Positions 56,243 to 56,797 of a stretch of DNA of 64,000 nt are shown here, one piece after another. Position 1 is the stretch's first letter. Every line of letters begins with the position of its first letter. The stretch lies in the NCBI GenBank assembly GCA_951813565.1, contig OX638351.1, positions 1,152,001-1,216,000 on the forward strand. Direction: 5' to 3'. Origin of the DNA: an uncultured Poribacteria bacterium (GTDB lineage Bacteria; Poribacteria; WGA-4E; WGA-3G). Position numbers and translations under genes: made by a program. Under the pieces are notes generated by a model. That model saw only the letters and a program-made list of their open reading frames with translations. It made no database searches and was not told the origin of the DNA.

Positions 56243-56797
56243 TTATTCTCCGCCGAATGCTCTATGATAGGCAAGAATTGCTTCAAAGAAATCGACAAAG
56301 TTTTTGAATTTCTCATTATTGTCAACTTGGTTTATGGCTTGTGTTAGCGCATCTTTTAGGTCTTCCACTTCTGGTTTGCGTGCTGCAGCATAAGCCAATT
56401 TTGGTTTTAACATGATCAATTCGTTTCGGTTAAACTCTTCACTCATTTGAATCTTTTTAACAGCCCCGTATACTTTTCGGATTTGGGATGTTTTGAGGTT
56501 TCTGGCGAGTTTACGTCCTAAATTTTCAGCTGCAGTGACGAGCGGTTCTCCGCCTTTCTCAATAACCTCTGAAATATCAACTTTTTGTTGGGCAACTATT
56601 TCCACTTCAACGTTACTTGCAGTAGGACCTTTTTGCCCTTGTGTAATCGTATATGAGGTGACTAACTGTCCTTCAACGAGCTCGTCAAATTGGATGTCTT
56701 TTAGTCCCGTGCGATGGAAGTGGACATCTTTACCTCCATCATCTGGTTGTATAAATCCGAAACCTTTTAGCAAGGTTTTAATTTTTCCTGTTGGCAT
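56243..56797 (-). CDS. csm2: Cold-shock domain-Csm2 fusion
   Basis: N-terminal about 66 aa CSD ([21 protein letters not shown]) joined without a stop to Csm2 ([29 protein letters not shown]); GAAGGAG SD. Confidence 0.9.

Follow-up and report, generated by a model that had tools for sequence, protein, structure and literature searches.

Type III-A CRISPR complexes contain a helical small subunit, Csm2/Cas11 (PF03750, TIGR01870), for which structures are available in 5an6, 6ifk, 6xn3, 9ash and 6mur. As reported in the text of PMC10289348, each Csm complex has two or three copies of Csm2, which contacts the target RNA, which agrees with the original prediction that the subunit is multi-copy and lines its target. 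Free cold-shock proteins such as CspA, CspE and CspB (PF00313; 1mjc, 3i2z, 3pf4) are about 70 amino acids long and consist of a five-strand OB barrel bearing the RNP1 motif. In the window analyzed here (the whole 64,000-nucleotide stretch, from genome G000), both domains are encoded by a single gene, the second in a complete type III-A operon of cas10-csm2-csm3-csm4-csm5. Both are well known and the locus is otherwise an ordinary type III-A system; the joining of a cold-shock domain (CSD) to Csm2 is the new part. Literature searches of main texts, with supplements and most subscription journals outside their range, found no published description of the fusion, in line with the earlier statement that no characterized example was known.

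The fusion gene (56243..56797, reverse strand) is an intact open reading frame of 184 amino acids, with no internal stop codons in its translation. Residues 3-64 match the Pfam CSD profile (E 1.6e-15; 57 bits against a cut-off of 27) and residues 84-183 match Csm2_III-A (PF03750; E 2.5e-30; 106 bits against a cut-off of 24.8). The TIGR01870 Csm2 profile also scores above its cut-off (68.8 against 30.6 bits), so the Csm2 that follows the CSD is intact as first described. A Shine-Dalgarno-like AAGGAG (56804..56809, reverse strand) stands 6 nt before the ATG, and a site of the A(A)GGAG type precedes the ATG in all 17 of the 17 fused loci printed; the reading of the gene as one frame with its own ribosome-binding site therefore holds. 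The product is divided into the CSD (56603..56797, reverse strand; residues 1-65; a predicted five-strand barrel), a short and variable linker (56576..56602, reverse strand; about residues 66-74) and the Csm2/Cas11 helical core (56246..56575, reverse strand).

For comparison with homologues, the best 120 of 1344 found were taken, giving an alignment of 120 rows that includes the query and excludes P0002, the longer call in the window. The whole CSD is covered by 103 of these 120 (query included). Entropy is 2.33 for residues 66-77, against 1.08 for the CSD and 0.90 for the Csm2 core. R107, Y136 and R140 of the core are invariant in 103/103 homologues and, by motif and spacing, are probably the target-RNA contact residues equivalent to SeCsm2 R49/Y87/R91. 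As in Csm2/Cas11, the QIR arginine and the LAY..AR motif were found in 47 of 47.

Several trivial explanations of the gene were rejected. An assembly artefact or two separate genes are ruled out by the intact frame, by the homologue coverage and by contigs from two runs of other studies (X4 record 7, spanning 55900-56634, and X7 record 14, spanning 55900-56672), which run through the boundary between the two domains and have no indel or joint listed at that point; no stop or frameshift thus separates the domains. A start at the upstream ATG, which would give 216 amino acids and lies inside cas10, is ruled out by the conserved Shine-Dalgarno-like site and ATG of the 184-residue start. A plain Csm2 made by internal restart, as the start of one NCBI record (P0085) at residue 65 might suggest, finds no support since codon 65 is not conserved: it is GTG in 4 of 16 genes, GTA in 8 and GTT in 4, and no conserved internal start was found. 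The fusion gene is also the only csm2 copy in the source genome. With a single csm2 and no conserved internal start, every Csm2 in the cell should carry a CSD, and the complex would then present two or three CSDs on short linkers. The multi-copy nature of Csm2 (PMC10289348) in this way supports the proposal that the complex displays several such domains. No RNA runs holding the CSD-Csm2 sequence were listed.

The predicted structure (AlphaFold, AF2) comprises a five-strand barrel, a linker of about 10 residues and a helical bundle, with a pLDDT of 92 and a pTM of 0.74 and 0.68 in two models; the linker is the block of lowest pLDDT. Searched with Foldseek, the CSD part matches CspA/C/E/B at a probability of 1.0, with TM scores to the target of 0.8-0.87. 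The Csm2 core matches 6ifk_D with a Z of 13.5 and an rmsd of 1.7 over 103 residues. The two parts match Csp and Csm2 structures separately, and none of the 32 solved-chain matches covers both. The fusion resembles type III-A Csm2/Cas11 in its helical core and its place in the operon; unlike the solved examples, its product has a folded CSD at the N-terminus. In the Csm2 of T. onnurineus (6mur), 86 residues precede the matched core, so that a complex of known structure already accommodates extra sequence at this N-terminus. The fused CSD shares the predicted OB barrel, RNP1 and K7/D24/F37 with CspA/CspE/CspB. However, it is two residues shorter before RNP1, has Thr in place of Trp and His in place of the RNP2 Phe, and is variable at the RNP2 His. 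It also falls below all NCBIfam Csp cut-offs (best 56.9 bits against 120).

The genetic surroundings, all on the reverse strand, were assigned from profile matches. Downstream of the fusion gene lie csm3 (55402..56232), whose product keeps the IGG.D motif, csm4 (54338..55393) and csm5 (53145..54317), which has no CSD. These are followed by a gene for a CARF-RelE protein (51981..53117; Pfam Cas_APE2256; PADLOC CARF7-CARF_RelE, E 3e-130), then cas4, type I-B cas1 and cas2 (49567..51751), and a CRISPR array (46128..49310) of 48 repeats of 30 nt with spacers of 34-41 nt. PADLOC places CARF fused to RelE in the 51981-53117 product, which is a predicted effector and Cami1-like by domain make-up; by the definition in PMC11229360, Cami1 is activated by cA4 and cleaves mRNA in the A site of the ribosome. 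Upstream lie cas10/csm1 (56850..59132), in which a motif check found HD and GGDD, and a type I-B module of cas3, cas5 and cas7 (59856..63856), with cas8 and cas6 probably just outside the window beyond it. Window positions 39760-40040 contain 33-nt repeats in tandem, which probably belong to a coding sequence. Elsewhere in the genome, at about 3989000-4010000 of G000:C1, there is a second type III locus that looks type III-D-like by eye; a probable reverse transcriptase gene adjoins its cas1, and one of its Cas7-like genes starts with a Gly/Arg/Gln tail.

Two features of this neighborhood bear on alternative roles for the CSD. The intact HD motif of Cas10 in the source genome, together with the ability of CSDs to bind ssDNA (PMC11090510), would allow the domain to hand single-stranded DNA to the Cas10 HD nuclease. 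This is very improbable: genome G171 has a CSD with intact RNP1 but a Cas10 without the HD motif, G009 reads HN, and Csm is reported in PMC6611850 to cleave RNA rather than ssDNA at transcription bubbles. The second feature is a short palindromic element (56822..56856, no strand assigned) between cas10 and csm2, a hairpin upstream of the fusion gene, where free CSD-Csm2 might bind its own mRNA leader or, alternatively, pre-crRNA. Csm2 is described as weakly associated with target-free complexes (PMC10289348), and crRNA maturation as the work of housekeeping nucleases acting via Csm5 (PMC9762709). We give such crRNA handling or autoregulation hardly any weight, as the hairpin is a repeated element, of which the genome has 7 copies when up to 5 mismatches are allowed, and the 17 fused loci do not share a conserved sequence upstream of the gene. 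Further short palindromic elements occur between and inside cas genes (e.g. window 49958-50187), and Rfam returned 0 matches in window 45000-64000.

The fusion is confined, among the genomes of the phylum searched, to one family of the Poribacteria. In a search of 176 genomes of the phylum, 48 match csm2 at E 1e-12 or better, and of these 18 carry the fusion (one split over two contigs and one in a broken operon) and 30 a plain Csm2. All 18 fused genomes belong to one family, f1, and span three genera. All three full-length relatives that bear a name are assigned to Candidatus Poribacteria, and one run containing the sequence is a sponge metagenome. Outside the phylum, 401 genomes of the phylum to which G176 belongs gave 27 Csm2 loci, in 25 genomes, and no CSD-Csm2 was seen among them or in the best 150 representatives at 50% clustering. 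Likewise, the fusion was not found in 15 viral loci, in the best 15 of 573 plasmid-collection records or in 79 of 80 metagenome loci (32/64 parts scanned); the 80th metagenome locus encodes a CSD-Csm2 that is 73% identical to the query. The scan of the genome-contig collection covered 10/64 parts, and a scan with P0123 as the query gave no match. These searches are biased towards the query and so do not prove absence outside Poribacteria. The ESM Atlas lists a 68-member cluster, with Csm2 in 94% and CSD in 75%, in which Bacillota is the commonest phylum of 20 known, a hint of possible Bacillota members.

Some unusual architectures were encountered in the same searches. In L113 (G125), csm3 is missing and the reading frame of CSD-Csm2 continues into that of the C-terminal portion of Csm4 (P0272, 404 aa); this system is probably broken. 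The operon of L135 (G107) has the order csm2-csm3-csm5-cas10-csm4 and a divergent Cas10 (35% to G000). Eight loci from GC-rich genomes of the phylum of G176 (L205-L209, L213, L214, L216) encode Csm2-like domains preceded by a long leader that is acidic and rich in Pro but includes a basic patch, and a 373-residue protein, P0276, looks like two tandem Csm2 domains behind an Arg/Lys/Gly tail.

The unfused relatives carry a different N-terminal addition. With starts chosen by heuristic, the 30 plain Csm2 proteins have a polar tail rich in Arg/Gln/Asn/Gly, with a median length of 25 amino acids and a net charge of +5; the charge is +2 or more in 28 of them. The same N-terminal place is thus occupied either by a basic disordered tail, probably an RNA binder of another type, or by a CSD. 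Outside the 48 systems, a polar tail was seen in 24 of 88 representatives and in 13 of 71 metagenome Csm2 proteins with a start, being net positive in 7 of those 13. No CSD that could compensate was found elsewhere in the plain loci: in the 49 stretches searched, each of 20 kb at most, the 18 fusions gave the only matches. The effectors of the fused loci are CARF-APE2256 in 8 of 18, a B116-like small protein with a protein of about 400 amino acids in five, and Csm6 in one; the one protein of about 400 amino acids that was checked from such a pair is a CARF-HEPN. Both the CARF-APE2256 and B116-like-pair types are present in plain loci too. A tie between the CSD and the CARF-RelE effector is ruled out, as fused and plain alleles occur with both main effector types, and the CSD is therefore bound to no one effector.

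Phylogenies suggest that the two allele types have moved between operons. To explain the fused state, the tree of the Csm2 core needs 6 changes, that of Csm3 9 and that of Cas10 8. Placing all fused loci in a single clade is rejected by the AU test for Csm3 (p 1.9e-5) but not for the Csm2 core (p 0.14). For example, the fused G007 and the plain G028 share 86% identity in Cas10 and 93% in Csm3 but only 73% in the Csm2 core. Between G007 and G011, which are both fused, the respective identities are 85%, 90% and 96%. The simplest reading is a single fusion origin followed by exchange of whole csm2 alleles between operons, with the order of gains and losses left unfixed.

The nucleic-acid-binding face of the CSD is partly preserved. 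The original prediction of a complete CSD with RNP1 KGFGFI and an RNP2-like DVHFH stands as far as both strings are present, but RNP2 is non-canonical. In place of the canonical V-F-V-H-F, the window copy reads V-H-F-H-R (H26-F27-H28-R29), and the Trp expected before RNP1 is Thr8; K7, F13, F15, D24 and F37 are kept. The alignment of DVHFHR with DVFVHF of CspA is gapless, so the first His occupies the site of the RNP2 Phe. The RNP1 of this copy conforms to K-G-F/Y-G-F-I. Among the 103 homologues, F/Y13 is present in 98 and F/Y15 in 101; the RNP2 Phe site holds His in 98 and Tyr in 5, and the Trp site holds Thr in 94. The RNP2 His is kept in 21, the window copy (His28) among them, and is Arg in 14, against 119/119 in control CSDs (102/102 other CSDs, most of them collected by an RNP1 rather than an RNP2 pattern, and 17/17 domains of a host CSD-Hfq-like gene).

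Of 101 fused proteins, 94 keep all of K7, F/Y13, F/Y15, D24, H/Y26 and F37; the other 7 have lost at least one of the six with the fold kept, and G127 is such a case among the genomes too. By alignment, these six face residues correspond to the CspB base sites N1-N5 given in PMC4493011. Relative to those sites, F15 with K7 and D24, F13 and F37 are kept and the Phe27 site holds His or Tyr, while the His29 site is mostly lost and the Trp8 site is the one replaced by Thr. In CspB itself, the Lys and Asp are numbered K7 and D25. Positions 28-30 are among the most variable of the fused CSD, and carry Arg/Lys in 89/101 fused proteins against 4/102 and 0/17 control CSDs. The net charge of the domain is near 0 (median 0 over 99).

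The fused CSD is under purifying selection. In Nei-Gojobori counts pooled from 16 fused genes, a set without G125 and G027, the CSD has a dN/dS of 0.18, the Csm2 core one of 0.12 and Csm3 one of 0.14; for the closest 11 genes the values are 0.17, 0.09 and 0.15. This bears on whether the CSD is an almost neutral passenger, or is retained for stability as a tag that helps folding or translation. Of the 48 systems, 30 manage with no CSD, most of the domain has been deleted in frame in one homologue (P0098), and its invariant columns are mostly fold-core positions. The dN/dS of the domain is nevertheless close to that of Csm3, and exposed K7, F15, D24 and H26 vary much less than the surface does elsewhere, making a passenger or tag improbable.

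The surface pattern also bears on whether the CSD is a protein interface, blocking an anti-CRISPR that binds Csm2 or docking a host or Cas partner. AcrIIIA1 is reported to bind Csm2 (PMC11662646), and Cmr7 has been speculated to shield Cmr-beta (10.1101/2020.06.24.163345). The coexistence and movement of two allele types, the high variability of positions 28-30 and the loss of RNP1 aromatics with retention of the fold in some homologues would all suit such a role. However, the conserved surface is the nucleic-acid face, and the fused gene occurs with Csm3/Cas10 backgrounds of differing descent and with differing effectors, which argues against a co-evolved Cas partner. Furthermore, a shield needs no CSD fold, yet CSDs recur on three subunits. 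We consider a shield or interface distinctly unlikely.

That recurrence was seen on Csm5 and on the Cas7-insertion subunit. Of 35 metagenome loci with a closed csm5, two encode a type III-A Csm5 with a C-terminal CSD (L297:2612-3949 and L315:6393-7826, both forward strand), and both lie outside the Poribacteria fusion group. In G137, a type III-D Cas7-insertion subunit (TIGR03986; L193:7696-10080, reverse strand) has an N-terminal CSD, which falls outside the clade of fused-Csm2 CSDs on a long branch. CSD recruitment to these subunits is counted as independent of the Csm2 fusion. In a tree of 61 rows, ten fused CSDs form one clade (99/91), which groups, with weaker support (89/84), with the CSD of the host CSD-Hfq-like gene and one long-branch outsider; the union of fused and host domains is not rejected (AU p 0.43). 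It is possible, judging from this grouping, that the CSD of Csm2 derives from the host gene. In the source genome this is a conserved gene of 316 codons (L021:745-1695, reverse strand) with CSD and Hfq-like folds, the Pfam matches being weak and below cut-off. It and the Csm2 fusion hold the only two CSDs of that genome.

No free Csp was found over the 111 genomes of f1, where the best CSD match (E 2.1e-22) lies in a 320-aa frame. By comparison, families f2 (11/11) and f3 (29/29) have CSD matches at E 3.2e-25 or better, and those among the matches listed sit in short frames. Extra CSD matches in 20 f1 genomes are all in frames of at least 199 amino acids. These extra CSDs are on long, defence-like proteins (e.g. 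L152, L158), and by eye some have an Hfq-like segment before the CSD.

The original prediction held that the CSDs are RNA chaperones that could unfold structured targets, and they might replace the free Csps apparently lost in f1. Melting by CspE needs the RNP2 His and its neighboring Phe. The window copy keeps His28, the Csm5-borne CSDs keep RNP1 and both the RNP2 Phe and His, and target structure is named in PMC10497410 as a possible limit on Csm. In the fused family, however, the RNP2 His is mostly lost and the Trp and RNP2 Phe are replaced, and H32R at the matching His makes CspC defective (PMC8599858). In addition, 17 of 35 f1 csm systems have no CSD despite the missing Csps, the loss of which is one lineage event and so lends a chaperone in cis weak support. 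The residue pattern fits a reduced base pocket with backbone contacts better than a full melting chaperone. A built-in chaperone is therefore unlikely, and the low-temperature role first suggested has nothing pointing to it except the name of the domain. We regard as possible, though well below even odds, a broader version, in which type III complexes repeatedly grafted CSDs (on Csm2, Csm5 and Cas7-insertion) as a built-in arm for target capture and unfolding, the f1 arm having been copied from the host CSD-Hfq-like gene in a lineage without free Csps and competing with the basic-tail allele.

The reading that we prefer, at about even confidence, is that the CSD is a tethered, multivalent, low-specificity grip on ssRNA that aids target capture or dwell, and hence cyclic-oligoadenylate (cOA) output. 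Each CSD would hold a few nucleotides through the K7/D24/F15 pocket, H26, F13 and F37, with the basic residues at 28-30 binding the RNA backbone. With this added avidity, phage transcripts that are scarce or partly occupied would be captured faster or retained for longer, and so increase cOA signalling to whichever effector is present. The domain would be an accessory rather than a core need, doing the probable job of the basic disordered tail in unfused relatives. Counted for this grip are the closeness of the CSD dN/dS to that of Csm3, the retention of the six face residues, the Arg/Lys at 28-30 and the presence of another type of putative RNA binder at the same position in relatives, as well as the interchangeable csm2 alleles, the independent CSD recruitment, the independence from effector type and the tolerated addition in 6mur. 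Counted against it are the 7/101 proteins that lose face residues, the near-zero charge of the CSD against +5 for the tail, the 30/48 systems without the domain, the P0098 deletion and the fact that basic tails are not universal in Csm2.

The fusion bears on the way in which a Csm complex reaches and opens transcripts that are structured or covered by protein; in PMC10497410, differences between guides in the efficiency of Csm knockdown are put down partly to target accessibility. Near-identical operons with either a CSD or a basic tail on Csm2 provide a natural experiment on extra RNA grip, in which one domain swap can probe capture, dwell time and cOA output. If the grip is real, tools for RNA detection and knockdown would gain a small extra module; if not, the fusion is a lineage-specific curiosity. 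If the repeatedly grafted arm is real, RNA accessibility would limit type III immunity in nature and the module could be moved onto Csm tools.

Related arrangements have been described in other defence systems. The type III-Dv Cas7-insertion subunit of Synechocystis (PMC11026444) has an uncharacterized, flexible N-terminal domain at the place where a Poribacteria homologue has a CSD; the domain is not termed a CSD there, and the word "cold" does not occur in the main text of that paper. That subunit is a single-copy cap at the 3' seed of the crRNA, whereas Csm2 is the multi-copy small subunit. Cmr7 of Sulfolobus Cmr-beta, as presented in 10.1101/2020.06.24.163345, is likewise a lineage-specific, multi-copy decoration, and modulates target cleavage and cOA output. 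It is a separate dimeric type III-B protein, is not described as a CSD in that text, and is alike by role, with no homology claimed. CSDs are also accessory, presumed RNA-binding modules on the defence proteins of CoCoNuT restriction systems; as set out in PMC11090510, these are McrBC-like rather than CRISPR systems, and the function of their CSDs is, as here, a predicted one.
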